Origin: Escherichia phage EcS1
Sequence record: NC_055721.1
Direction: 5' to 3' (one strand)
DNA: 64,000 nucleotides
The position numbers and the translations under genes were made by a program. The notes under the pieces are model-generated. The model worked only from the letters and a program-made list of their open reading frames with translations, did no database searches and was not told where the DNA came from. Below are positions 1,793 through 48,306 of the stretch, in pieces. Position 1 is the stretch's first letter, and each line of letters opens with the position of its first letter.

Positions 1793-2004
1793 GTATTGTT
1801 CTCACGAATATATTGTTCAGACCATTTTATCATATCTTCAGTATGCCCAAAACCCGCATTAAGACTGTCCATCCATACAATGCCTGGAGCGTATTCAGAA
1901 GTTACGTATAATGTTCCATTGAACCAAGTTCCTTCTTCAGTCCATTCAATATTACCAATATAGCCATCACCTAATCTGAATTCATGATAATAAGTTTTCA
2001 TCAT
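1789..2004 (-). CDS. hypothetical small protein (46.1 position)
   Basis: 71-aa ORF with start/stop overlap between gp47 and gp46. Confidence 0.4.
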   Translation of the reverse strand: MMKTYYHEFRLGDGYIGNIEWTEEGTWFNGTLYVTSEYAPGIVWMDSLNAGFGHTEDMIKWSEQYIRENNT

Positions 2005-3026
2005 TGGTTCTGTACCTCAACATAAAGTTGCTTAGATAATGCTTTCAAAGATTTAATATCTTCTTTAGATGCATCAGGCAGAGCTTCAATATATTCTTCC
2101 ATTAGTTCAAACAAACTCTTGACTTCGATTTCTTCATCGTCATCTGATTCGACAGAGTTATCAACCTTTGAAACAACACGTAATGAATGAACTACTTTTT
2201 CAAGTTCTGATTCGAACTTAGTAAGCTCTTTATCGACTTTTTCAACGATAACACGAACTGCAAGATTTTTAAAGTCTTCGAAGTTTATTGTGTCGTTTGG
2301 ATAGAAGATTTTTCTGTGCCAAGTAGTTTCATTGGGAATGAAATCCATGGAGCCCTTGGTTGTATCTTGAACCCAGAAACCTCGAGGGTCGTTTTCGTCA
2401 CCTGCTGTAAGGGTCCAAGGAGTACCGATATATTTGACGTTAGAAGCTTCACTGATAGTGTGGAAATGACCGGACCACACTTGTTTGTATTTTTTGAGGA
2501 AGTCTGGTTCGAGCCCATGAGATTTCATTCCTTTATAGAAGTAAAAGCCATTCAGCTCCCAGTGACCAATACAATATTCAGCAGAAGATGTACGAATATG
2601 CTCTAAGATTTCGGTTGTGTTTTCATCGCACATCCATGGAATCAAGTCAATCAGCGTACCGTCGAATTCCATTGTCATTGGTTTTTCAACAACAGTGATG
2701 TTTTTATACTTACCAAGAACTTCTGTTGCAGCATTAGGCGTCAACGTGTTCTTATAATGCATGTCGTGGTTTCCGACAATAGTAATTAAATGAATATCTG
2801 CTTCATCTAATCTTTCAGCAATTTCACGAGCGAATTCCATACACTTATGAGTAATAGCTTTTCGGACATCAAATATATCACCATATTGGATAATAGTTTT
2901 AATGTTGTGTTTCTTTGCGTAATCGATATGGTCTTGAATACCTTTACGCTGAATTTCTTGGACCCATGGGTCATCTGCCTTTACACCTAAGTGCCAATCA
3001 CCAGAATGTATAATTTTCATGTTCAC
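2001..3026 (-). CDS. 47: recombination endonuclease subunit gp47 (Mre11/SbcD-like phosphoesterase)
   Basis: 341 aa; N-terminal IHSGDWHLG and GNHD metallophosphoesterase motifs; T4 gp47 size and position. Confidence 0.9.
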   Translation of the reverse strand: MNMKIIHSGDWHLGVKADDPWVQEIQRKGIQDHIDYAKKHNIKTIIQYGDIFDVRKAITHKCMEFAREIAERLDEADIHLITIVGNHDMHYKNTLTPNAATEVLGKYKNITVVEKPMTMEFDGTLIDLIPWMCDENTTEILEHIRTSSAEYCIGHWELNGFYFYKGMKSHGLEPDFLKKYKQVWSGHFHTISEASNVKYIGTPWTLTAGDENDPRGFWVQDTTKGSMDFIPNETTWHRKIFYPNDTINFEDFKNLAVRVIVEKVDKELTKFESELEKVVHSLRVVSKVDNSVESDDDEEIEVKSLFELMEEYIEALPDASKEDIKSLKALSKQLYVEVQNQ

Positions 3027-3062
3027 CTCTTAGTTGGTTCATTATATCTAACGCCCTAGATA

Positions 3063-3083
3063 GCAAAAAAGGGCCGAAGCCCT
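3063..3083 (-). terminator. rho-independent terminator-like hairpin
   Basis: minus-strand GGGC-TTCG-GCCC stem followed by T6 immediately downstream of the 3083..3376 ORF. Confidence 0.5.
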
Positions 3084-3376
3084 TAAATTGGTTTAGTCAA
3101 TACCCAGCCATTTGCTTCTGCTTCTTTACGAAGAGCTTCAAATTTTCTGAGCATATGTTCTTTAGACTTTCTAATTTGTTCGAAATCTGGTACTTTAGCC
3201 TTAGCAGCTGTTTCGCAGACATAGCATCTCATTGAAAGTTTAGGACCAGTATATTGAGTAGAGCAAGTCATACACTTACCCATATACCACCCATCAGGCC
3301 AATCATTCACACTACGCCATTCGTTAGAGATCAGGTCTTTCATCGAAAAAATCCACGTCTTCGGCTGATTTAACAA
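3083..3376 (-). CDS. hypothetical Cys-rich protein
   Basis: 97-aa ORF with CxxC...CxxC pairs; co-oriented early array. Confidence 0.45.
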   Translation of the reverse strand: MLNQPKTWIFSMKDLISNEWRSVNDWPDGWYMGKCMTCSTQYTGPKLSMRCYVCETAAKAKVPDFEQIRKSKEHMLRKFEALRKEAEANGWVLTKPI

Positions 3377-3493
3377 TGATTTCAGTAATCACACGTTTTC
3401 CTTTTTCTGTACGATGATAATTCTCGGCAGCCTTTTTCAAGGCCTCTTTAGAATAGACAATACCATCACGATTAATAAAATCTGATTTAGCAA

Positions 3494-3691
3494 TTACCAC
3501 TTGTACCATGGTTTCACCTGTACATCATCAACCCAAACAACTTCTTTAGGATTAGCTTTAATGATCGTACCTTCAGTGCCTAGAACGCGGTAGTGTGTCT
3601 CGGAGAGCTTCACTGCCATAACACCATTAGATACAGATAGAGTGAACCCTGCGTTCACCTGGAGTCGTTTAAACTTTGCTTGAATGAGCAT
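3494..3691 (-). CDS. hypothetical protein
   Basis: 65-aa co-oriented ORF; no motif recognised. Confidence 0.35.
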   Translation of the reverse strand: MLIQAKFKRLQVNAGFTLSVSNGVMAVKLSETHYRVLGTEGTIIKANPKEVVWVDDVQVKPWYKW

Positions 3692-4022
3692 TGATGATGT
3701 CCCAAATCTGTTTACGAGTTGTCTGCCAGCCTACAGTAATGATTTCATCATTAAATGGCTGACGTAAGATAGTACGAGATTTTTCAATAGCGTACTTATA
3801 TGCAGCAAAATTATTTTCCAGAACAGCAGCCTGAGCATGGAGGTTCAGACGGTCAAGTTCACGTTTGTTCTTACGATAAATCTTTTGAGCTTTAGCATTA
3901 GCTTCTACGCGAGCAGCTTCTTGCATACGAGCAATTTCTTCTTGATATTCATTTTCGCTATGTTCAAGTTCTTCACGAAATGCTTCACCTGGTGCTAGGT
4001 CATTCTGATATTCTGGAGTCAT
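3669..4022 (-). CDS. hypothetical protein
   Basis: 117-aa co-oriented ORF. Confidence 0.45.
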   Translation of the reverse strand: MTPEYQNDLAPGEAFREELEHSENEYQEEIARMQEAARVEANAKAQKIYRKNKRELDRLNLHAQAAVLENNFAAYKYAIEKSRTILRQPFNDEIITVGWQTTRKQIWDIINAHSSKV

Positions 4023-4024
4023 AA

Positions 4025-4252
4025 TTATTCCGGTTTATAATTTAATTCAACGAAGAAACCTTCGTCATTAACTTGGTACTCGTAAGAAAGGACTCCCGAT
4101 TCGGTCGTTATTTCTTCTATACCAGGATTCTTGGGGTCAATAATAATAGGTAACTTTTCGATATCCCTTAGATACATTTTAAGTAAATAAGGAATAACGT
4201 TTTGGTCACCTACTTCTTCTAGGAACCCATTGAGGTTAAGCTTGAGCCTCAT
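4025..4252 (-). CDS. hypothetical protein
   Basis: ORF-track 4025..4330 trimmed to an internal Met to reduce overlap with gp55 3' end. Confidence 0.35.
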
Positions 4253-4769
4253 ATAAAAAATCCAATGCATTATCATCTTCAAGATCAAGTGCTTTATCTG
4301 ACCCTGGCACTTTAACAAGAGATGATTCATACTGCGTCATTTTATCGTAGATGTCCTGAATAAAGGTTTCATCTGCTAACGCAACCATATCATCGTCACG
4401 TGCGTCATACACATTGTGAACGAAATAGCTGTATTTCTTCGCGACTTCACGACGTTCTTTTTTGATACGTTGAACAAAGGCGTTGAAACAAGCCTGGGTT
4501 ATATACGCATGTGGGTTGTTGTACTTAGTTTCGTCGAAGTTTTTAAGACCTTTAATTGCAGCCTCAATACCGTCTTCAATCATTTCTTGCTTCCAGGATT
4601 GGGTATATCCAGAGAAGTTAAAACGTTTTGAAAGACCTTCTGAAATAAGCATAATAGCTTCACCAATCTTATCTGTCATTCGAACTAACGAATCAGGTTC
4701 GAGAGCACATCGTCTTTTCCAATCACAGATTTCAAGATAAAGCTCTTTATTATTTACATAGTTTGCCAT
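4236..4769 (-). CDS. 55: late-transcription sigma factor gp55
   Basis: 177 aa; near-identical blocks to T4 gp55 as recalled ([60 protein letters not shown]). Confidence 0.9.
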
Positions 4770-4835: not shown

Positions 4836-5102
4836 TTAACCTTTAATAACGTAGTACAGTTGAAACACCTTTTCAAGAATCTTGCAGAATTCATCGAATG
4901 TGATTTCGAATTCAGCAGCTTCTTCATAAGCAGTTTCTTTAAAGTTTTCCCAAAGAGAAGGATATTGTTTAACGTTCAACATTGAGACATGAGTTTCCCA
5001 ATAAACACCATAGTCTTCTTCATCAAACCAAACACCCATATCACCATCAACTGTGAACTGGCCAAGGCCTAATACAACTAATGAAGCAGTATTAATTTTC
5101 AT
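4836..5102 (-). CDS. hypothetical protein
   Basis: 88-aa ORF in tight overlapping start/stop array. Confidence 0.45.
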   Translation of the reverse strand: MKINTASLVVLGLGQFTVDGDMGVWFDEEDYGVYWETHVSMLNVKQYPSLWENFKETAYEEAAEFEITFDEFCKILEKVFQLYYVIKG

Positions 5103-6062: not shown

Positions 6063-6371
6063 TTATGCCGTTTTCATGTCGCATAGCCATTCCTCTTTAT
6101 AACCTGGAACTCGGATTAGCAAATCATAACCTTTGCCGGTATTTGCTTCAATATCCATTCGCACAGAACAATTAGAAAATATTTCAGCGAACTTTTTGAT
6201 ATCCATATCACAACGAATATCAGTTGGCAAAGAATAAAGAATACCTCTGCCACCTAGATTAATCATTTTTAAAGTAGGACCAAACTCGCGACAGAGTCGA
6301 TGTCCTACTTCATTATATCGTGTGTATGGAAGAAAGCCATTATCAGCTTTAAAGAACACATGAAATTTCAT
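6063..6371 (-). CDS. hypothetical protein
   Basis: 102-aa co-oriented ORF. Confidence 0.45.
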   Translation of the reverse strand: MKFHVFFKADNGFLPYTRYNEVGHRLCREFGPTLKMINLGGRGILYSLPTDIRCDMDIKKFAEIFSNCSVRMDIEANTGKGYDLLIRVPGYKEEWLCDMKTA

Positions 6372-15219: not shown

Positions 15220-15452
15220 TTTAATTCCTTCACAAATTTATGGTGACATTCACGACATTTCATTTTAAGGACTGGAGTTGACCAGTCCACTAATTGTACT
15301 TGCATAGTACCACACTTTGGGCATGGTGTTACTTGCTTACAGGCTGCTTCACGCCTGTCTACCATTGCAATAGTAGCACCCCAGTCGATTTCAAATACTT
15401 CTTCATCGCCTAAAGCTTCTAACTTATCGATTAAATTCTGTGTCTTAGGCAA
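15216..15452 (-). CDS. zinc-ribbon protein
   Basis: 78 aa; CPKCG ... CRECH pairs. Confidence 0.45.
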   Translation of the reverse strand: MPKTQNLIDKLEALGDEEVFEIDWGATIAMVDRREAACKQVTPCPKCGTMQVQLVDWSTPVLKMKCRECHHKFVKELK

Positions 15453-16491
15453 TTAACACCTCGATAGCATTTTTCAGCACATCGCGTTGAACTAAAAGAT
15501 TTGCATCTTGATGCGCAAGTTTTTGCAAACGCTTTTCAATTTCAATACGTTCTTGGCCATTTTTCTCTAGCTTGTCATCAATAGTCTTAATTGATGCACG
15601 CATCAAATTAGCATGATGAATTTCAATTTTAACTTCTTGCGGGTCGAAAGTATTAAATGACGCTGGTGTAGCTAATGAGCTTGCAGTGTAAGTTCCTGAC
15701 ATTTCTTTTGACACGGTATCGCCTTTTGGTGAAAGAATAAAGTCTGCACTATGTATATTGCGTTTATCGTATTGTTCTATTGTGCAAATATCAAGTTGAG
15801 TGAAAGCATTATATAACTGAGCAGCAAAACGGTCGCGAATTCTGGTGTAATTGTAAGCACTTTGGTCTTTATAATTACGAGCCTGAATCCGACAACGAAT
15901 CTGAGTGCCTTCAACAGTAAAGATAACACTTGTCATGTATTTGTTAGAAGGAGACTCAGTTCTAGTGTATGGCAAAATTTGACGGTCTTCACCTTCGACC
16001 AGTCGAGAGCCTTGCTCAAGAAGCCATTTAAGATTCAAATGCAAATTACCACATACGGTTTCAATATGAGATGGAGCTTGAGTAGATGGAGAAACCATAA
16101 AACGATTAGTAAAACTAACACCCTTACCATATTTTAAATTAACAATAGGCTTCAATTTATAATCTTTCAACTTGCATTGTGCTTTAATAGCACCTGCAGC
16201 ACGTGAACGACATAATGCTTTATAGAAGCCTTCAGCAGTATTACCAATTGAATGAAACTCAATCTTAGGTTTGAACTTATGAATAATAGGAAAATCTTCA
16301 GCAACTTTATTGATGAATGTAGCGCCAATGAAAGCTTGAGAAGAACTATTAGCCAAAGGTTTGAACATAGTCTCCATATCTGCATCAAGAGGATATTCAA
16401 TTTTCAATTGATTCGCCATTGGCCCACGAAGAATAAAACGCAAAGTGTCTAGTACATATTGACGCATTTCTTTAGAAGTTTTAATAATCAT
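15445..16491 (-). CDS. hypothetical protein (348 aa)
   Basis: long co-oriented ORF; no motif recognised. Confidence 0.55.
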   Translation of the reverse strand: MIIKTSKEMRQYVLDTLRFILRGPMANQLKIEYPLDADMETMFKPLANSSSQAFIGATFINKVAEDFPIIHKFKPKIEFHSIGNTAEGFYKALCRSRAAGAIKAQCKLKDYKLKPIVNLKYGKGVSFTNRFMVSPSTQAPSHIETVCGNLHLNLKWLLEQGSRLVEGEDRQILPYTRTESPSNKYMTSVIFTVEGTQIRCRIQARNYKDQSAYNYTRIRDRFAAQLYNAFTQLDICTIEQYDKRNIHSADFILSPKGDTVSKEMSGTYTASSLATPASFNTFDPQEVKIEIHHANLMRASIKTIDDKLEKNGQERIEIEKRLQKLAHQDANLLVQRDVLKNAIEVLIA

Positions 16492-16593
16492 TTTCTCACC
16501 TTACTGGCGCAGCCAGTATCTATTATCGTCGGATTTAAATAGGCCTTAACTAAAAGACCTTGATTCATTATACCGTACTCTTTATTAAAGCAA

Positions 16594-17370
16594 TTAGGCC
16601 TCATTAAACACTACTGAAGAAGGACGTTTGAAGAAAGAATGAGTGTTATCATCTTTAGCATGTTCAAACGTTGCTTTGAATTCGATTTCACCACGATAAT
16701 CAGCTGGAACTGCCTTTGGCAGAGAACCATAAACCGTGGCACCATTTTCTAAACGAACTGTCATCTTAAAGACAGGACCGTAGATATCCATCCAATCTTT
16801 AACTGAGACAACAATTCCTTTCACCACTAATTTACCCACAGGAGCTTCGCCTTTGTTGGCTTTCAATGATTCATAATAGTTATTGAACCATTGTTCAGAG
16901 TGTGCCTGAATCGCTTTCAGGATGTTCTTGTGGGCTCTTACTTCAACCATACCCACACGAGTTTCACCTAAGTCCCATAGTTTGTATGGAGCTTTCATTT
17001 CAATAAAGTTGAATGCTTTAAGTTCTAAGTACATATTAAAAGTTAAGCGCAGCTTCCACCAACCATGATCGCCTGTGTACTCAGGTTTATCCATTGACTC
17101 AAGTTCAGTAACATATGGAAGATAACTACCAGCATGATATGCTTCAACTTCACCTAATTCATTTTCCCACAAGTAGCCATCAAATGGAGCATGTGGACGA
17201 TCATCTTTACCCCAAGTAGGGCTAACACAACGATCAAATGAATCACGGCCATATTTTGATTTAGTCCAACCTGCATTTAATTCATATGCACGTTGTTCAA
17301 CACGTTTTCGTTGAGCTCTGTAAGCTGCACGATTTTCTTCGATTAAATCAGAAACGATTTTAGTTAGCAT
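16594..17370 (-). CDS. hypothetical protein
   Basis: ORF-track 16594..17406 trimmed to Met at 17368-17370. Confidence 0.5.
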   Translation of the reverse strand: MLTKIVSDLIEENRAAYRAQRKRVEQRAYELNAGWTKSKYGRDSFDRCVSPTWGKDDRPHAPFDGYLWENELGEVEAYHAGSYLPYVTELESMDKPEYTGDHGWWKLRLTFNMYLELKAFNFIEMKAPYKLWDLGETRVGMVEVRAHKNILKAIQAHSEQWFNNYYESLKANKGEAPVGKLVVKGIVVSVKDWMDIYGPVFKMTVRLENGATVYGSLPKAVPADYRGEIEFKATFEHAKDDNTHSFFKRPSSVVFNEA

Positions 17371-17428
17371 TTTATTCTCCTTGTTGGTGTAGGAGCATAA
17401 TACCACGTTCCTACACCATTGTAAACAC

Positions 17429-17635
17429 TTAGTTCACTACTATGTAAATCATCCATCCAGGCCAGAAGAACATCATAGACAGAGTCAATAGGTTACGTTT
17501 AAGTTTTTGATGCCATTCACGACACATGTGATCAGGCATACCTAAAGCCCAAGCACTAAGACACATGAAGTAAAAACCTGTGCCTAGATACACACATACA
17601 CCAAGGAAAATCAAAGCCATAATAATTGGAGTCAT
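17429..17635 (-). CDS. small membrane protein
   Basis: 68 aa, two hydrophobic segments. Confidence 0.35.
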   Translation of the reverse strand: MTPIIMALIFLGVCVYLGTGFYFMCLSAWALGMPDHMCREWHQKLKRNLLTLSMMFFWPGWMIYIVVN

Positions 17636-18000
17636 TAGTAAAAAGTCCTGTTTAAAGGTTCACCGGTGAACCAAGCTGAAGTCATCAGCTCTTGACCTTT
17701 AAGAGCAGTATCGCGTGATGCTACGATAACAATCTTTCTTGCATCAAGAAACTCTGTAGCCTTGATTTGAGCTCGGTCCATTTCGATAAGGTCTAAAGTG
17801 TTGCACTTTAACTTGAATCGCTTATGCTTTGGTTGGAACGAATTGTTCTCAAGTTCTTCATCTACGATAACCGAAGTAATCCATTTCTCGTTTTCATATT
17901 TGTCAATAGCTTTTTGCATTTCAGCCCTGAAATCTTCACGAGCCTCATTCAAAAAGTGTTCACATTGTCTAATGATTGAATCTGCAAAGTTCATTACCAA
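17635..18000 (-). CDS. hypothetical protein
   Basis: 121-aa ORF. Confidence 0.45.
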   Translation of the reverse strand: MVMNFADSIIRQCEHFLNEAREDFRAEMQKAIDKYENEKWITSVIVDEELENNSFQPKHKRFKLKCNTLDLIEMDRAQIKATEFLDARKIVIVASRDTALKGQELMTSAWFTGEPLNRTFY

Positions 18001-18167
18001 GGGTCCTTTTGTGAAAGTGGAATGTCATCAGCCCAGATAGACGCTATAGCAATTTCTTCGCCTTCAAGCAAGAGTTCAATGCGTAAAGTTGAATCCTTAT
18101 AGCTTGGAGACATGACATTGAAGCTTAAATTTTCTTTTAGATATTCTTTTAATTCTTCTTTAGTCAT
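17994..18167 (-). CDS. hypothetical small protein (57 aa, below ORF-track cutoff)
   Basis: hand-translated minus-strand ORF MTKEELKEYLKENLSFNV... filling the gap between neighbours. Confidence 0.3.
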   Translation of the reverse strand: MTKEELKEYLKENLSFNVMSPSYKDSTLRIELLLEGEEIAIASIWADDIPLSQKDPW

Positions 18168-18642
18168 GAGAAACCTCTTTAGGGTGATACTTTAATTGTA
18201 AGGCATCATGGACCTTAATAGCTTCGACATAAATTGTTGAGACTGTGAAGTCATAAACCCATTGAACAATTTCTTTATCTTTAAGCATCCATGGCTTATA
18301 GAATGACCATACGTCTTGGTGCTGTTTAAAAACATGGTCCATCTCGCGACGTGCTTCACGAGCCCAATACAAGAACGTTCCGATAACTTGAGCCCAATAT
18401 TCAGGTCGAACACTAATATGAGCTGGGCCTAAGTGGTGCATCTTTTCAGTAACTAACAGTTCTCGCCAGGCGTTTCTGAGTTCACCCAGAACGTTTGGTT
18501 TTGTACCGTGATTAAACTTATACAGGTCTTCACAGATACGTACTGCAGCCTTCTCTGGCTTACCTTGTGGCTTCCCAGCGTAGATATGAGCTGGAGGATA
18601 GATGCTGGTGTTTTGGACCCAATTGTTCATTAAAATAGACAT
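18160..18642 (-). CDS. hypothetical protein
   Basis: 160-aa ORF. Confidence 0.5.
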   Translation of the reverse strand: MSILMNNWVQNTSIYPPAHIYAGKPQGKPEKAAVRICEDLYKFNHGTKPNVLGELRNAWRELLVTEKMHHLGPAHISVRPEYWAQVIGTFLYWAREARREMDHVFKQHQDVWSFYKPWMLKDKEIVQWVYDFTVSTIYVEAIKVHDALQLKYHPKEVSHD

Positions 18643-18733
18643 TAGTAACCACCATGAGGACTGTTATCATTGACGCCTTGACTCATTTTATAGAGCATGA
18701 AAGCAAAAGCTATTACTATAATCGATAATGAAG

Positions 18734-19225
18734 CTATAAGCATGTTTTCACCGTTTCGTTAGATTGGACACTGATATAATTATCAGAATACTTACGCTGC
18801 ATAATATAATCGTATGGGTCATCAATATCATAACGCATCCAGAATACGCCCATATTAACGTTATATGGGTCATTGCCAGAAGAACCAGTAGCACGTCCTA
18901 CATCACGACGAGAATAACGATGATGTCCATGTTGGTCATATGCTGTTTCGTAAGAAGTACCAGTGCCAGTGATACCTTCAATAGTGATTTCTTCACCGCC
19001 ATTAGTGATGAACTTAGCACCTTTAGCGAAATGATTTGGGTTACCATTTTCAGATGAGACCATCACGATAACATCTTCAATATTTGGGTCATCATTGTAT
19101 GTTCCAAGATGCCATACTGCTTGATATTGATTTTCTGCAGTAACCGTTGTGATTCGGAACTTCTCGTCCCATACGCCATTAACAAAACGTTTGAACTTAA
19201 TATCATATTTCACTAAAGCACTCAT
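18734..19225 (-). CDS. hypothetical protein
   Basis: 163-aa ORF. Confidence 0.5.
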   Translation of the reverse strand: MSALVKYDIKFKRFVNGVWDEKFRITTVTAENQYQAVWHLGTYNDDPNIEDVIVMVSSENGNPNHFAKGAKFITNGGEEITIEGITGTGTSYETAYDQHGHHRYSRRDVGRATGSSGNDPYNVNMGVFWMRYDIDDPYDYIMQRKYSDNYISVQSNETVKTCL

Positions 19226-19446
19226 GCTGGAACCTTTTTAGTTTTTAAACCATGAACTAAAACAATAATTGCTGCAATAGCACCACCCACCATAATCATT
19301 AACAATGGGTCAATAAAGAAACGTTCTAAAGCTTGATGCCATTCAAGCCATTCCATACGCATACGGAAGAAAGCCATGAATTGTTCACCTTCACGGTCAA
19401 TGAACAGATTCACTATCCACCAATAAGCAAATACAATTGTAGCCAT
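19222..19446 (-). CDS. small membrane protein
   Basis: ORF-track 19222..19527 trimmed to internal Met; hydrophobic. Confidence 0.35.
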   Translation of the reverse strand: MATIVFAYWWIVNLFIDREGEQFMAFFRMRMEWLEWHQALERFFIDPLLMIMVGGAIAAIIVLVHGLKTKKVPA

Positions 19447-19447
19447 T

Positions 19448-19654
19448 TTATTTTCCTCGCTTATACGAGTAGAAACGAGCCTGATAGTTATTATCGAAGA
19501 ACTGCCAACCTTGCCAGATTGCATCATCAGGCTGAAGATTCAGTTCAAAGCCACCTTCTACTTTAGAGATTTCAGTTACGACTGCTGACCATTCAGCAAC
19601 CACTCCAAACCAAATTACATCACCAACTTTAACTTCATTGATAGGCTTTAACAT
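19448..19654 (-). CDS. hypothetical protein
   Basis: 68-aa ORF. Confidence 0.35.
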   Translation of the reverse strand: MLKPINEVKVGDVIWFGVVAEWSAVVTEISKVEGGFELNLQPDDAIWQGWQFFDNNYQARFYSYKRGK

Positions 19655-19713
19655 TTTATTCTCCGGTTCGTTTCAGTACAGCCATCATACCATGTACAAT
19701 GGCTGTTGTAAAC

Positions 19714-20007
19714 TTATAAATTCACTAATCTTTCTCGATCACCACGCCAACTAAGATCAATAGGAATCTTGTGATAAGAAGCAATATCATTTCTATTAGC
19801 CAATAATTTAGAGACCTTAACTTGGGTGTCTTTAATCAATTCCTGAAGTCTTTCACTTGTGGCTGATGGGTTATATTCCTTTTCTATAAAAGAGTCCAGA
19901 ATCATCTTCTCAACTAACGATTTGAACTGTTCTTCAATAAGGTCCGATAAAGGACCTTTTTCGTATTGAGCTTTATTACCAAATACATCTTTACCAGTTT
20001 TAAGCAT
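19714..20007 (-). CDS. hypothetical protein
   Basis: 97-aa ORF. Confidence 0.4.
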   Translation of the reverse strand: MLKTGKDVFGNKAQYEKGPLSDLIEEQFKSLVEKMILDSFIEKEYNPSATSERLQELIKDTQVKVSKLLANRNDIASYHKIPIDLSWRGDRERLVNL

Positions 20008-20013
20008 AAATCC

Positions 20014-20991
20014 TCATTTCAACATTGTTACTTCAGCGATTTCCATCCAGTTATCATGGTCAGTAGCTACGAAGTCTGCTACATAAAGAGCCGTACGGAG
20101 TGAGACGTTACGAAGACGATTAACGTTAGACTTCATCCATTGTAAAGCTTCGATTGTTTCACTGTTTGATAAGCCACGTTTCTGCAACATATCTGTGTTC
20201 ATGATTACATCTTCAACGCGAACCATGATTTCTTCGTTTGAATGAACACCAAGGTCCAAATAAACAGAACGTGAAACCAGAGCTGCAAGATGTGGAGCAA
20301 GTTTAGAACCACGTTCTAATTCTTTGTCAACATCAACGTTAGTGATGAACACAACAGTTCCAGCAAATTCGAATTCTTTATCGATGTCTTTGTCATCAAG
20401 ATAAGACGAAGCAGTGCTCCAACAAACTTTACGAGTCTCACCAGTGTCTAAAGCAGCTTTCAGAAGGTTCAGGATATCCATGTCAGAGAAGATATCAACA
20501 TCATCAATCAGAAGCACATTACCTTCTTCTTTATTGTTCCAGAGTTGTTCGTAGAGACCGATACCTGAAATTTTGCCATTAATGCTTTTGAAAACAATAT
20601 CACCTTTTGCATCAGCACGTTTTAGAGCTTTCTCAAGGCTGTATGTCTTACCAATACCTGCAGCACCAGAGATGATTAAAGAACGAATGTTACCATTTAT
20701 GATACCAGTTGTCATCATGTTCATTACGTTAAAGCGCTTAGTGATACGAGCTTTCATTTCTTCAACTGATTCAACTTCCAGTGGAGAAGTTTCAACACCT
20801 TCCATTTCGATATCAGTTTTGAACACCCATACACCACGTTCTTTGCCATCGATTTGAACGAATACTTTGCCATCTCCCAAGTGTGCTTCATGAGCTGGAA
20901 CCATGTCCGGGAACCAAGTACGAGAAGCAATGTATTTACCAGAGATTTCGTTACCGCGGTAAGTACCTTTATTGATTTGAACGTTGAACAT
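20014..20991 (-). CDS. P-loop ATPase (AAA-like) with N-terminal extra domain
   Basis: Walker A GAAGIGKT, Walker B LLIDDVD, sensor-like TVVFITN; start set to ATG at 20989-20991, downstream of repeated promoter-like element. Confidence 0.6.
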   Translation of the reverse strand: MFNVQINKGTYRGNEISGKYIASRTWFPDMVPAHEAHLGDGKVFVQIDGKERGVWVFKTDIEMEGVETSPLEVESVEEMKARITKRFNVMNMMTTGIINGNIRSLIISGAAGIGKTYSLEKALKRADAKGDIVFKSINGKISGIGLYEQLWNNKEEGNVLLIDDVDIFSDMDILNLLKAALDTGETRKVCWSTASSYLDDKDIDKEFEFAGTVVFITNVDVDKELERGSKLAPHLAALVSRSVYLDLGVHSNEEIMVRVEDVIMNTDMLQKRGLSNSETIEALQWMKSNVNRLRNVSLRTALYVADFVATDHDNWMEIAEVTMLK

Positions 20992-21018
20992 TTTATTTCT
21001 CCAAGTAAGTCTGTTTTG

Positions 21019-21060
21019 TTTCGATGTAGCTATAATAACATGTTTGAAGCAGATGTACAC
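21019..21060 (-). promoter_or_regulatory. early-type sigma70 promoter-like element (repeat copy 1)
   Basis: minus strand: GTGTAC - 17 nt - TGtTATTATAGCT then conserved leader CATCGAAACAA; shared with three other copies. Confidence 0.5.
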
Positions 21061-21062
21061 AC

Positions 21063-21503
21063 TTATTTGCAAAGATTCCACTGAATCAAAGTATATTTTT
21101 CGTTGTAACCAGCTTTTTCCATTTGAGCAGCAAATTCTTCAAAGTTTTTAGAAGATTCAAAGAAATTCACAGCCAATTTAGTAGGCTTAGCAACACGTTT
21201 TTCAGATTTAACTTCAACTGCTTTAACAACTTCAACCACTGGAGCTGATTCAATGATATCACATGAACCATCTGAATAACGAGCCCATACTTCGTTACCA
21301 ACTTTAAACATTGCTGCTTTACGACCGTTAGGCATTTCTACCATTTTACCTTTCAACTTAGTTACTTCAGTAATAACTTTGTCACCATACTCTTCAAAAC
21401 GATCTTTAGCCATTACGCCATCAGTAGAAGCAATCATTGGGAAGTTGAAATGGTAATAAGCAAAATTACGAATTGCATAATAAGTTTTCATTTTTAACTC
21501 CAT
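21063..21503 (-). CDS. hypothetical protein
   Basis: 146-aa ORF directly downstream of promoter copy 2. Confidence 0.5.
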   Translation of the reverse strand: MELKMKTYYAIRNFAYYHFNFPMIASTDGVMAKDRFEEYGDKVITEVTKLKGKMVEMPNGRKAAMFKVGNEVWARYSDGSCDIIESAPVVEVVKAVEVKSEKRVAKPTKLAVNFFESSKNFEEFAAQMEKAGYNEKYTLIQWNLCK

Positions 21504-22046: not shown

Positions 22047-23060
22047 CTATCTGTTGTAATAAGCATCATGGTTTTCAAGATAAACCTCTTCAACGAATTT
22101 GTCCCAAAAGCTCATATCGACTTTAGAAGGCATACCGTTCTTGTGAGCCTGAACAGATAAACGCTCTACATCATCTACACAGATTTCTAACCATTCTTGA
22201 ACTTGTTTAAACGGAACAGTACCAGTTTTAACTTTAGTCAAGAATTCAGCATCTTTCAAAGGATATTTCAAGTCGCCAGTTGAATAGATTTCTTGAAGTT
22301 GAATACCACCACGTAATGCATGACTCAAAGCTTTCCAATCGATACCTTGGTTAGCTTCGGCCTTACGAGCACGTTCGCCATATTCGTCCCATAGTTTCAT
22401 GAGAGAATGTTTCATTTCTTTAATTGTGATAGTTGTCTGGAACTTACGGCCCAACACTTCATAGAAATGTTGTTGACCTGATTTATGGTCTGTAAACGTT
22501 GTCCATTCCAGGAATTCACCTAATGGAAGTTGAGAAGCAAAGTCAGACACACGCCAACGATCATTGATACCTTTCTGTTCTGGACGGTCAGAGTATTTCC
22601 ATTCAGGGATAGGTTCGATGACTTCGATTACTTTACGTAGGTCGGCCAGTCTTGAACCCTTTACACCATATTTCGCAGCTTGCTTACGGACATAACCAAG
22701 ATAGGCTTTCATGTCTGTCGTATAGAACTTGCTACGGTTGTCTTGGATAAACTTCCAGATATCAGGCAGGTCAGACTTAACTACAAGATTGCTAGGAGTA
22801 TGAAGCATGTCAAGAGCAACAGTTTCTCCTTCAGCAGCGAGTTTGAAGAAATACTTGAGAGAAAAGAGTTCATGGTCAACGTCATCTTTAGAGTTCTTAG
22901 AAGAACTGTTGTTAGTGTTCAAGTTAGTGTGATTCATTGCCTGGCACATCAAGATATCACGTGGATGTGGCACAAAGATTTCTTTATAGTCGACATCACT
23001 TTCTGGAGTAGATGTGCCATAAAGATGTGAGCCAAAATAACCTTTCATTACTGTTTTCAT
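22047..23060 (-). CDS. Pol-beta-superfamily nucleotidyltransferase (predicted)
   Basis: 337 aa; N-terminal GSHLYGTSTPESDVDY fits the GS-x(9-13)-DxD nucleotidyltransferase signature. Confidence 0.6.
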   Translation of the reverse strand: MKTVMKGYFGSHLYGTSTPESDVDYKEIFVPHPRDILMCQAMNHTNLNTNNSSSKNSKDDVDHELFSLKYFFKLAAEGETVALDMLHTPSNLVVKSDLPDIWKFIQDNRSKFYTTDMKAYLGYVRKQAAKYGVKGSRLADLRKVIEVIEPIPEWKYSDRPEQKGINDRWRVSDFASQLPLGEFLEWTTFTDHKSGQQHFYEVLGRKFQTTITIKEMKHSLMKLWDEYGERARKAEANQGIDWKALSHALRGGIQLQEIYSTGDLKYPLKDAEFLTKVKTGTVPFKQVQEWLEICVDDVERLSVQAHKNGMPSKVDMSFWDKFVEEVYLENHDAYYNR

Positions 23061-29447: not shown

Positions 29448-29939
29448 TCAAATGGGTGTGGATAGTGTATTTTCATTAGGAGCCCAATCAACAATAACCA
29501 CGTCAATATTAGGTGTGAACATATTGATTAATGCTTCAACTTTAGTCCAATCACCACCTGCAATACCACATCCAATACGAGGCATATAGATTTGAGGAAT
29601 ACAAATCTGATTCTCGGCCCATTTGTTCAATTCTATCAAAGAATCTACTAATGCACCATAGCGTAAATCAGGCCCAGCATAATATTGAGTATAAAGATTA
29701 AAGCAAATATTTTCTTGCTTATTGAAGCGAGTGCTTAATACGGCTTTAGTAAAGGTACCAAGTTTTCGGATATCAGCAAAATCTGTATCTTTGTCAATAG
29801 CTTCAATAGGATAATAAGCTTTAGCTAATTGACCCGCTATGCCACCACCCATTGTATGGAAACAGTTACAGCCATGAGCGATATTTTTACCTGAAAGAAA
29901 CAAGGCGACGATGTCGCCTTTAATATATTTTGTAATCAT
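29448..29939 (-). CDS. macro-domain protein (ADP-ribose binding/processing)
   Basis: 163 aa; glycine-rich macro-type motifs HGCNCFHTMGGGIAGQL and RIGCGIAGGDW. Confidence 0.6.
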   Translation of the reverse strand: MITKYIKGDIVALFLSGKNIAHGCNCFHTMGGGIAGQLAKAYYPIEAIDKDTDFADIRKLGTFTKAVLSTRFNKQENICFNLYTQYYAGPDLRYGALVDSLIELNKWAENQICIPQIYMPRIGCGIAGGDWTKVEALINMFTPNIDVVIVDWAPNENTLSTPI

Positions 29940-36056: not shown

Positions 36057-36583
36057 CCTTGAATAAAGTCAGCAATTGATTTCTGTGCTTCATATTTCTT
36101 CTCTTTACGAATAGCAAAAGGAAGTTTAACTAATGACCAAATGAGTCCATCAATCCAAGTTGTTAGAACAGAAAATAAAATCAATGTAATGTTAAGAAGA
36201 ATCCCTACAAAGATTAATTCAATTGTAGAATGAGACTGAGTTATAAAAGTAAAATTAGCTAAAACAATCATTGCAATAGTGATAGGGCCTAAGACACGGT
36301 TGATTCCAGTATCCTTAGGTTTCTTAATTTGAGGCTGATAACCTCTTGCTACGTAAGCCATAGTATTTTCCTCATAATGAAGACCAAGTTCTTCGGCTAC
36401 TTCTATTTCGGCTGATTTACGAATTTGGCGATCATAGTCACCATATTTTTCTTCAAAATTACGTACTCTTCTACAGAGTTTACAATCACAGTCGTCACTA
36501 TACCCTTCGCTAGTAGGCCAAAGGTCATGATGTTGAACAACCATTTTTAATCTCCAAAATTGAGTGACCAGTATATCACTCAA
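36038..36583 (-). CDS. membrane protein
   Basis: 181 aa; Cys-containing N-terminal region plus C-terminal transmembrane helices. Confidence 0.45.
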   Translation of the reverse strand: MSDILVTQFWRLKMVVQHHDLWPTSEGYSDDCDCKLCRRVRNFEEKYGDYDRQIRKSAEIEVAEELGLHYEENTMAYVARGYQPQIKKPKDTGINRVLGPITIAMIVLANFTFITQSHSTIELIFVGILLNITLILFSVLTTWIDGLIWSLVKLPFAIRKEKKYEAQKSIADFIQGCRGSK

Positions 36584-48212: not shown

Positions 48213-48306
48213 AGTTCCTCCAGGGCCGAAGCCCTGTTTGCTAAATTATAATGACGGTATAATGGTTTTAGGTCTTTAAAACAGGGTGATTCAGTTGGTG
48301 ATAGAA

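Follow-up and report, generated by a model that had tools for sequence, protein, structure and literature searches.

Phage T4 carries its alpha-glucosyltransferase gene, a-gt, between gene 47 and gene 55. The corresponding interval of Escherichia phage EcS1, which lies in the 64,000-nucleotide stretch of NC_055721.1 analysed here (the window), has no such gene, and this raises the question of whether the phage glucosylates its DNA at all or modifies its cytosines by another route. We found that the EcS1 interval is a version, lacking a-gt, of an early/middle gene block conserved in T4-like phages and that, elsewhere in its genome, EcS1 encodes gp036, a transferase of a family linked to arabinose. 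The cytosine modification of EcS1 is most probably an arabinosyl-5-hydroxycytosine system of the RB69/LC53 type and not glucosyl-hydroxymethylcytosine, and we propose that a-gt is absent because this lineage does not make the latter.

The gap between gp47 and gp55 spans 1,215 nucleotides (3021-4235) and contains, from the list of open reading frames (ORFs) and the sequence, five overlapping or abutting minus-strand ORFs; all genes around gp46-gp55 in the window are on this strand. The public EcS1 annotation likewise places five coding sequences (CDSs), BBC78102-BBC78106, between gp47 and gp55, and eight of the ten window proteins that were looked up are exact matches to EcS1 proteins (BBC78099, BBC78100, BBC78101, BBC78102, BBC78103, BBC78105, BBC78107 and the deoxynucleoside monophosphate (dNMP) kinase BBC78213), with accession numbers that run consecutively. 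The features of the interval and its two boundaries are as follows.

2001-3020, minus: gene 47, SbcD-like recombination nuclease subunit, left boundary; 72% identity to T4 gp47 over 337 amino acids
3041-3084, minus: intrinsic terminator and TATAAT box (terminator scan and sequence); predicted end of the small-ORF transcription unit and restart of transcription before gene 47
3083-3343, minus: ORF1, 86 amino acids, tentatively a distant a-gt.2 (DUF5486) relative; phrog_10481 at E 5e-30 over the full length; exact match to EcS1 BBC78102.1
3324-3509, minus: ORF2, 61 amino acids, lineage-specific small protein; 93% identity to CHI14 gp058; exact match to EcS1 BBC78103.1
3494-3691, minus: ORF3, 65 amino acids, a-gt.3 homologue; T4 a-gt.3 by tblastn at E 1e-15, 48% identity over the full length; phrog_1648 at E 7e-29
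3669-4022, minus: ORF4, 117 amino acids, a-gt.4 homologue (DUF2654); T4 a-gt.4 at E 1e-29; PF10849 at E 3e-27, above threshold; exact match to EcS1 BBC78105.1
4025-4252, minus: ORF5, 75 amino acids, a-gt.5 homologue (DUF5491); T4 a-gt.5 at E 6e-17; PF17595 at E 7e-16; 96% identity to CHI14 gp061
4236-4769, minus: gene 55, late sigma factor, right boundary; 76% identity to T4 gp55; exact match to EcS1 BBC78107.1

The start of gene 47 is placed at the ATG at 3020 and not at the GTG at 3026, since AGAGG precedes it (AGAGG-N5-ATG) and the resulting 339-residue product matches EcS1 BBC78101.1 exactly. The five ORFs fill 94.7% of the interval, and the remaining 62 non-coding nucleotides are accounted for by the terminator (3084-3069) and the TATAAT box (3046-3041). 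T4 a-gt encodes 400 amino acids (1,203 nucleotides), so ORFs of 61-117 amino acids that occupy nearly the whole interval leave no space for it; as this is a fact of gene content, chance is not a concern. An earlier note on this DNA had said as much, describing five small ORFs, none of them large enough for a glycosyltransferase, where T4 has a-gt, and each of these statements holds, including the T4 gene order, which in NC_000866 reads 47, 47.1, a-gt, mobB, a-gt.2, a-gt.3, a-gt.4, a-gt.5, 55. What it overlooked is that most of the five ORFs belong to a conserved set, a-gt.2 to a-gt.5, that also flanks a-gt in T4, and that RB69 has a comparable layout. The block consists of four genes of the a-gt.2 to a-gt.5 families (the a-gt.2 assignment of ORF1 being tentative), one lineage-specific small gene and a terminator/promoter unit before gene 47. 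Most of the small ORFs are the usual neighbours of a-gt, kept with or without it, and are therefore not stand-ins for the missing enzyme.

A glucosyltransferase could have been placed elsewhere, as the earlier note allowed, and a homologue search of the kind it proposed was run on the window and on a close relative. EcS1 is the sole species of the genus Kagamiyamavirus, with a genome of 175,437 base pairs, and, at 66% intergenomic similarity, was reported to be the phage nearest to Winklervirus among those not in that genus (PMC10132071), a placement in line with the identities found here. Its relatives in a megablast comparison with a phage collection are at best about 82-84% identical and are all Winklervirus or close to it: the Serratia phages CHI14, CBH8, X20 and LC53, the Erwinia phages Gravdalen, Vettismorki and Virsaitis27, and the Kosakonia phage Kc304. 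With T4 a-gt, T4 b-gt (beta-glucosyltransferase), T4 gp42 (deoxycytidine monophosphate (dCMP) hydroxymethylase) and the a-gt of Klebsiella phage Metamorpho as queries, tblastn found no homologue in the 64-kilobase (kb) window and nothing below E = 0.5, the best values for the two a-gt queries being 0.5-0.7; no homologue of the RB69 transferase gp3 was found in the window either. The complete CHI14 genome (171,175 base pairs) has no match to T4 a-gt, T4 b-gt, Metamorpho a-gt or RB69 gp3 at E up to 1. The window and the CHI14 genome are collinear (blastn aligns 81% of the window, at about 79% identity, and leaves no unmatched gap longer than 956 base pairs), and there is therefore no room in the window for a glycosyltransferase gene of the GT-B fold inserted relative to CHI14. 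A Pfam scan of the 20 window ORFs of at least 150 amino acids that are not obvious T4 core genes recovered a dNMP kinase, an nrdC.11-type nucleotidyltransferase, a macro-domain protein and others, and no glycosyltransferase domain.

The sole transferase-sized ORF in the window without an assigned function lies at 15445-16491 on the minus strand (348 amino acids, phrog_33957). It is 100% identical to EcS1 KNT65_gp091, with the next match at 50%, and it has no sequence match in the PDB and no Pfam glycosyltransferase domain; its AlphaFold2 model, built from an alignment of three sequences, is unusable, with a predicted local distance difference test score (pLDDT) of 45. This ORF also stands out from its surroundings. 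It has three homologues among 5.8 billion protein clusters and is 47-50% identical to its nearest relatives, compared with 80-90% for the neighbouring genes, and it appears from these comparisons to be a fast-evolving gene.

Outside the window, EcS1 does encode a candidate sugar transferase. EcS1 gp036 (BBC78084.1) is the top match of a 303-amino-acid CHI14 protein, at 90% identity over the full length, and falls in one 90% cluster with proteins of LC53, CHI14, X20 and Virsaitis27. It is 54-62% identical to RB69 gp46:47 and belongs to the GT-B transferase family of RB69 gp46:47 and LC53, which has been linked to arabosylation of 5-hydroxycytosine (PMC13326640). An alignment of 72 homologous sequences has 26 invariant columns, and the AlphaFold2 model of gp036 is confident (pLDDT 95; predicted template modelling score, pTM, 0.90). 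In a Foldseek search the model matched MshA (3c4q) with template modelling (TM) scores of 0.64-0.67, and also uridine diphosphate (UDP)-GlcNAc 2-epimerases, enzymes of the same fold; the best structure matches reported for RB69 gp46:47, there named arabinosyltransferase 1, are likewise 6kih and 3c4q (PMC13326640). From its model and its family, gp036 is predicted to be a glycosyltransferase of the DNA-modification GT-B type. It has no blastp similarity to T4 a-gt, T4 b-gt or RB69 gp3 and, in view of the first two results, is not an a-gt orthologue. The suggestion that the gene might lie elsewhere therefore stands in a changed form, as a non-orthologous transferase that is probably not a glucosyltransferase.

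In T4, b-gt and gene 42 sit between uvsX and gene 43, beyond what corresponds to the left edge of the window, and gp036 appears to occupy the same interval in EcS1. It lies 15 genes from gp46 (EcS1 gp051), which places it between uvsX and gene 43 by analogy with CHI14. EcS1 gp039 (BBC78087.1) falls in one cluster with a CHI14 "peptidase" that belongs to the RB69 gp50 family, gp045 (BBC78093.1) is the DNA polymerase, and the two slots gp037-038, the first of them next to gp036, and the five slots gp040-044 fit the order of genes in CHI14 once its homing endonuclease is left out. In their uvsX-43 interval, CHI14 and LC53 encode a kinase, the 303-amino-acid protein, a thymidylate-synthase (ThyA) homologue, a small ORF, the "peptidase", a homing endonuclease, a HAD-type protein, a 564-amino-acid nucleotidyltransferase, a SIS-domain arabinose-5-phosphate isomerase and a lipoprotein. 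These proteins are 58-83% identical to RB69 gp45-gp55. For the synthase homologue, identity to RB69 gp48 is 81%, against only 25% to T4 gp42; across CHI14, LC53 and the Logan metagenomic contig L026, the ThyA homologues show 78-81% identity to RB69 gp48 and only 25% to T4 gp42. L026, whose transferase is the nearest metagenomic relative of gp036 (80% identity), has in its uvsX-43 interval the same set of kinase, glycosyltransferase, ThyA homologue, HAD protein, nucleotidyltransferase-kinase and SIS isomerase, in the order 43, a 150-amino-acid ORF, SIS isomerase, nucleotidyltransferase, HAD protein, ThyA homologue (80% to RB69 gp48), transferase, kinase, uvsX. The 90% clusters that contain the CHI14 isomerase, nucleotidyltransferase and phosphatase have no EcS1 member. 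On the strength of close relatives, gene numbering and the literature, we infer for EcS1 the ThyA homologue, the UDP-arabinose genes, the sugar and the base. The cytosine-modification module would be located in the uvsX-43 interval, some 12-13 kb past the left edge of the window as estimated from CHI14.

The gene content of the two loci varies together. Among the loci whose uvsX-43 side could be read (Metamorpho was compared on the 47-55 side only), three arrangements were seen.

T4, L014 and L016-L018: a-gt present after gene 47; T4-type gp42 (71-100% identical) and no isomerase between uvsX and gene 43
RB69, CHI14, LC53, L013 and L020: a-gt absent after gene 47; arabinose-pathway genes between uvsX and gene 43
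L015: a-gt absent after gene 47; gene 43, imm and uvsX only, with no modification genes between them

L015 (metagenome contig OBRI01000039.1) comes from a T4-like phage in which gene 43, imm and uvsX are almost adjacent (15668-20869). Neither gp42 nor b-gt nor an arabinose cluster is present there, which makes L015 an example of a third state, without cytosine-modification genes at either locus. In tblastn searches of the phage collection, the RB69-type synthase was found in 341 records, ten of them with at least 95% identity to the protein of CHI14, and T4-type a-gt in 657, mostly of Tequatrovirus and Klebsiella Jiaodavirus. The absence of a-gt is common among these phages, L015 included, and so is not in itself diagnostic of the modification state; for EcS1 the assignment turns on the presence of gp036.

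By homology with RB69, LC53 and HY126, the EcS1 pathway would comprise four steps. The thymidylate-synthase homologue would make 5-hydroxy-dCMP, as RB69 gp48 does (PMC13326640), and this would be phosphorylated and incorporated instead of dC. An arabinose-5-phosphate isomerase, a bifunctional kinase/nucleotidyltransferase and a HAD phosphatase, the enzymes to which UDP-arabinose synthesis has been assigned (PMC13326640), would supply the sugar donor. The GT-B enzyme gp036 would then move arabinose onto 5-hydroxycytosine in DNA, and the resulting arabinosyl-5-hydroxycytosine may shield the DNA from restriction and CRISPR nucleases. Cytosine is replaced by arabinosylated 5-hydroxycytosine in RB69 and in Acinetobacter phage DLP3 (PMC13326640), and Serratia phage LC53 is reported to contain 5-arabinose-hydroxy-cytosine by two papers that both cite Mahler et al. 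2025 (PMC13326640; bioRxiv 10.64898/2025.12.19.695335). Erwinia phages of Winklervirus have no a-gt or b-gt homologue, and their DNA is hypermodified and, in its native form, cannot be nanopore-sequenced (PMC11780129). Kagamiyamavirus is itself listed with a deoxycytidine triphosphatase (dCTPase), an 'hmC' (hydroxymethylcytosine) gene, denA, denB, ndd and alc, genes that commonly accompany cytosine replacement (PMC12115623, Table 4).

Several points weigh against an arabinosyl-5-hydroxycytosine system in EcS1. Its ThyA homologue, isomerase, nucleotidyltransferase and phosphatase are assigned from gene numbering, synteny and one literature table, and the 'hmC' genes of that table are not split into T4-type and RB69-type (PMC12115623). 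The exclusion of a-gt and b-gt is direct for the window and for CHI14, and extends to the other ~111 kb of EcS1 through CHI14 alone. The donor sugar of gp036 is not readable from its fold or sequence, and a literature search found no chemical analysis of EcS1 DNA. EcS1 has about 79-82% DNA identity to Winklervirus, the uvsX-43 interval is known as variable, and L015 illustrates that a phage without a-gt may also be without modification genes between gene 43 and uvsX.

The alternative that fares best keeps the same gene scaffold and changes its product. EcS1 might build something other than a single arabinose, whether by attaching two or three of these sugars to each cytosine, as happens in Bas46, RB69 and DLP3, or by using a different pentose or a decorated sugar, by way of the gp50-like gene or of a transferase outside the window. 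Related phages do differ in arabinose number, which is set by extra transferases (PMC13326640; bioRxiv 10.64898/2025.12.19.695335), and EcS1 retains the RB69 gp50-like gene, whose role is unknown, alongside gp036 and upstream of the polymerase gene; a second transferase could sit in the part of the EcS1 genome outside the window. We nonetheless regard a different product as unlikely. A second transferase of the RB69 gp3 type is missing from the entire genome of CHI14, which shares the 90%-identical transferase; LC53, whose enzyme is in the same 90% cluster, is reported to be mono-arabinosylated; and no glycosyltransferase domain was found among the 20 window ORFs scanned with Pfam.

A second alternative is that EcS1 glucosylates its DNA after all, through a relocated or non-orthologous glucosyltransferase outside the window or through use of UDP-glucose by gp036. 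No T4-type a-gt, b-gt or gp42 is found in the window or in the whole CHI14 genome, and for these reasons DNA glucosylation in EcS1 is unlikely on sequence grounds; the suggestion in the earlier note that the phage may not glucosylate its DNA is probably right. In addition, T4-type a-gt was always found with T4-type gp42 and never with arabinose genes at the loci with a readable uvsX-43 side, the nearest relatives of EcS1 all encode an arabinose-5-phosphate isomerase beside this transferase, and the 90%-identical LC53 enzyme comes from a phage whose DNA is reported to have arabinose on 5-hydroxycytosine (PMC13326640). Taken with these observations, a glucosylating EcS1 seems quite improbable. 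Finally, some T4-like phages have no modification genes at either locus, such as L015 with its 43-imm-uvsX arrangement, and Krischvirus and Pseudotevenvirus have no hmC gene, alc or denB (PMC12115623, Table 4), but sugar-free EcS1 DNA (plain cytosine or bare 5-hydroxy- or 5-hydroxymethyl-cytosine, with a-gt loss a simple loss of glycosylation) is very hard to reconcile with an intact, conserved GT-B transferase, an accompanying gp50-like gene and the hallmarks of cytosine replacement listed for the genus.

Returning to the 47-55 interval, the small ORFs differ in how closely they resemble their T4 counterparts. The a-gt.2 to a-gt.5 families are present at the syntenic position between genes 47 and 55, from matches to family models, with a-gt.2 the tentative member. 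ORF1, which would be 97 amino acids long if started at an upstream TTG, has a zinc-ribbon-like segment (CxxC-x14-CxxC) in its N-terminal half, and its C-terminal 32 residues resemble DUF5486, the T4 a-gt.2 family (T4 a-gt.2 scores 9.5e-43). The match of 19 bits is below the Pfam cut-off of 27, which makes the assignment tentative; it is supported by a tblastn match of RB69 a-gt.2 to ORF1 (E 2e-4) and by equally weak, sub-threshold DUF5486 matches (20-21 bits) in the LC53 and Metamorpho orthologues. ORF1 is 57% identical to an 87-amino-acid LC53 protein and 55% to the ORF1-type gene of Metamorpho, and we tentatively regard it as a distant, extended a-gt.2 relative. ORF2 was seen, besides EcS1, only in CHI14, Kc304 and Virsaitis27 among the genomes compared; it has no match in T4, RB69, LC53 or Metamorpho, and family profile searches gave no Pfam match and a weak match to phrog_17354. 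ORF5 would be 101 amino acids long from an upstream ATG inside gp55, and it overlaps the end of gene 55 by 17 nucleotides, the same as in T4. As early as 2006, a-gt.4 was listed among the ORFs of unknown function that very different T4-like genomes have kept (PMC1524935). The a-gt.2 to a-gt.5 block persists whichever modification a T4-like phage uses, and it could have a role independent of modification.

Two annotations near this block appear to need correction. The public EcS1 record labels ORF1 (BBC78102.1) '46.1 gene product', and the true 46.1 homologue is an ORF on the other side of gene 47, next to gene 46.

110-1792, minus: gp46; exact protein match to EcS1 BBC78099
1789-2004, minus: 46.1 homologue (DUF5487), between genes 46 and 47; T4 46.1 at E 8e-15

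In CHI14, RefSeq annotates the 22-amino-acid CDS FDI23_gp057 alone at 36157-36411 on the minus strand (L001 4225-4479). This segment contains an intact ORF1 orthologue of about 85 amino acids with 89% identity to the 87-amino-acid LC53 protein, and from its sequence the short CDS looks like an annotation error.

The junction before gene 47 is a conserved feature of these genomes with or without a-gt. Directly after the ORF1 stop codon, EcS1 has a hairpin, AAGGGCTTCGGCCCTT, with a UUCG loop and a T-run (TTTTGC) at 3084-3069, followed by the TATAAT box at 3046-3041 and the gene 47 ribosome-binding site. T4, CHI14 and Metamorpho have a matching hairpin and TATAAT unit before 47 or 47.1. In the two of these phages that carry a-gt, T4 and Metamorpho, the gene ends directly before this terminator unit, and Metamorpho has a second, near-identical hairpin after its ORF1-type gene, such that a-gt lies between two hairpins. 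The EcS1 window has a single hairpin here, with nothing between it and ORF1. More generally, a-gt of the Jiaodavirus type is bracketed by near-identical UUCG-loop hairpins, GGGCTTCGGCCC and GGGCCTTCGGGCCC (positions 5070-5087 and 6338-6353 in Metamorpho, L002; 7647 and 8917 in L016-L018), and genomes without a-gt have one copy at the corresponding junction. The paired hairpins could mark the boundary of a cassette around a-gt. Loss of a-gt by recombination between duplicated terminators was considered and rejected: this hairpin is a common T4-type terminator found at many other sites, and its occurrence around a-gt therefore allows no inference on how the gene was gained or lost. A second exact copy of the GGGCTTCGGCCC hairpin occurs within the window itself, at 48234 on the minus strand between the homologues of genes 3 and 2, and shows that the genome reuses this motif as a terminator. 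Homing endonucleases also recur directly upstream of gene 47, including an HNH or other endonuclease in LC53 (L021 35729-36361), mobB in T4 (L003 23886-24680) and one in Klebsiella phage EI, and this junction appears to be an insertion hot spot.

The known systems closest to EcS1 are the Winklervirus phages, RB69 and the a-gt-bearing T4 and Jiaodavirus phages. The Winklervirus phages are its closest sequenced relatives (80-91% amino acid identity for gp46, gp47 and gp55), share its 90% transferase cluster and have a similar interval content, with all of ORF1 to ORF5 present in CHI14, although EcS1 belongs to another genus. CHI14 differs from EcS1 in having a 47.2 membrane ORF and, in its modification cluster, a segB endonuclease for which the EcS1 gene numbering leaves no room; LC53 differs in having its homing endonuclease after gene 47 and no ORF2. 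RB69 (Mosigvirus) has the long-known and comparable order 47, a-gt.2, a-gt.3, a-gt.4, a-gt.5, 55 without a-gt, and shares with EcS1 the gp46:47 transferase family and a gp50-family gene. Unlike RB69, EcS1 has the extra 61-amino-acid ORF and a longer, zinc-ribbon-bearing a-gt.2 relative, and RB69 for its part encodes a further transferase, gp3, close to rIIA, and its cytosine is di-arabosylated. T4 and other Tequatrovirus phages, and Jiaodavirus phages such as Metamorpho, have in common with EcS1 the flanking genes, a-gt.3, a-gt.4, a-gt.5 and the UUCG-hairpin and TATAAT unit, but they have an a-gt of 397-400 amino acids immediately upstream of the terminator, to which T4 adds mobB and 47.1. In the a-gt-bearing phages this gene is paired with a T4-type dCMP hydroxymethylase (71-100% identity to gp42) and not with the RB69-type enzyme.

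Elsewhere in the window, the minus strand of the nrdC-tk region encodes an nrdC.10-type protein (20014-21081) with sub-threshold Pfam matches to AAA and STAND-type NTPase families, an nrdC.11-type RlaP-like nucleotidyltransferase (22047-23060) and a macro-domain protein (29448-29939), none of which bears on the missing a-gt.

Close relatives of EcS1 are already known to have an interval without a-gt and the alternative gene cluster, whose chemistry has also been described, and our results do not add new biology to these systems. The type of cytosine modification matters for a phage in that it sets which defences are evaded, such as restriction enzymes and Cas nucleases, and which defences target it, such as type IV enzymes and DNA glycosylases, as well as how its DNA behaves in native sequencing and laboratory cutting. 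For EcS1, a broad-host-range coliphage, behaviour of the arabinosyl-5-hydroxycytosine type, as in RB69 and LC53, would be expected over that of T4-type glucosyl-hydroxymethylcytosine.

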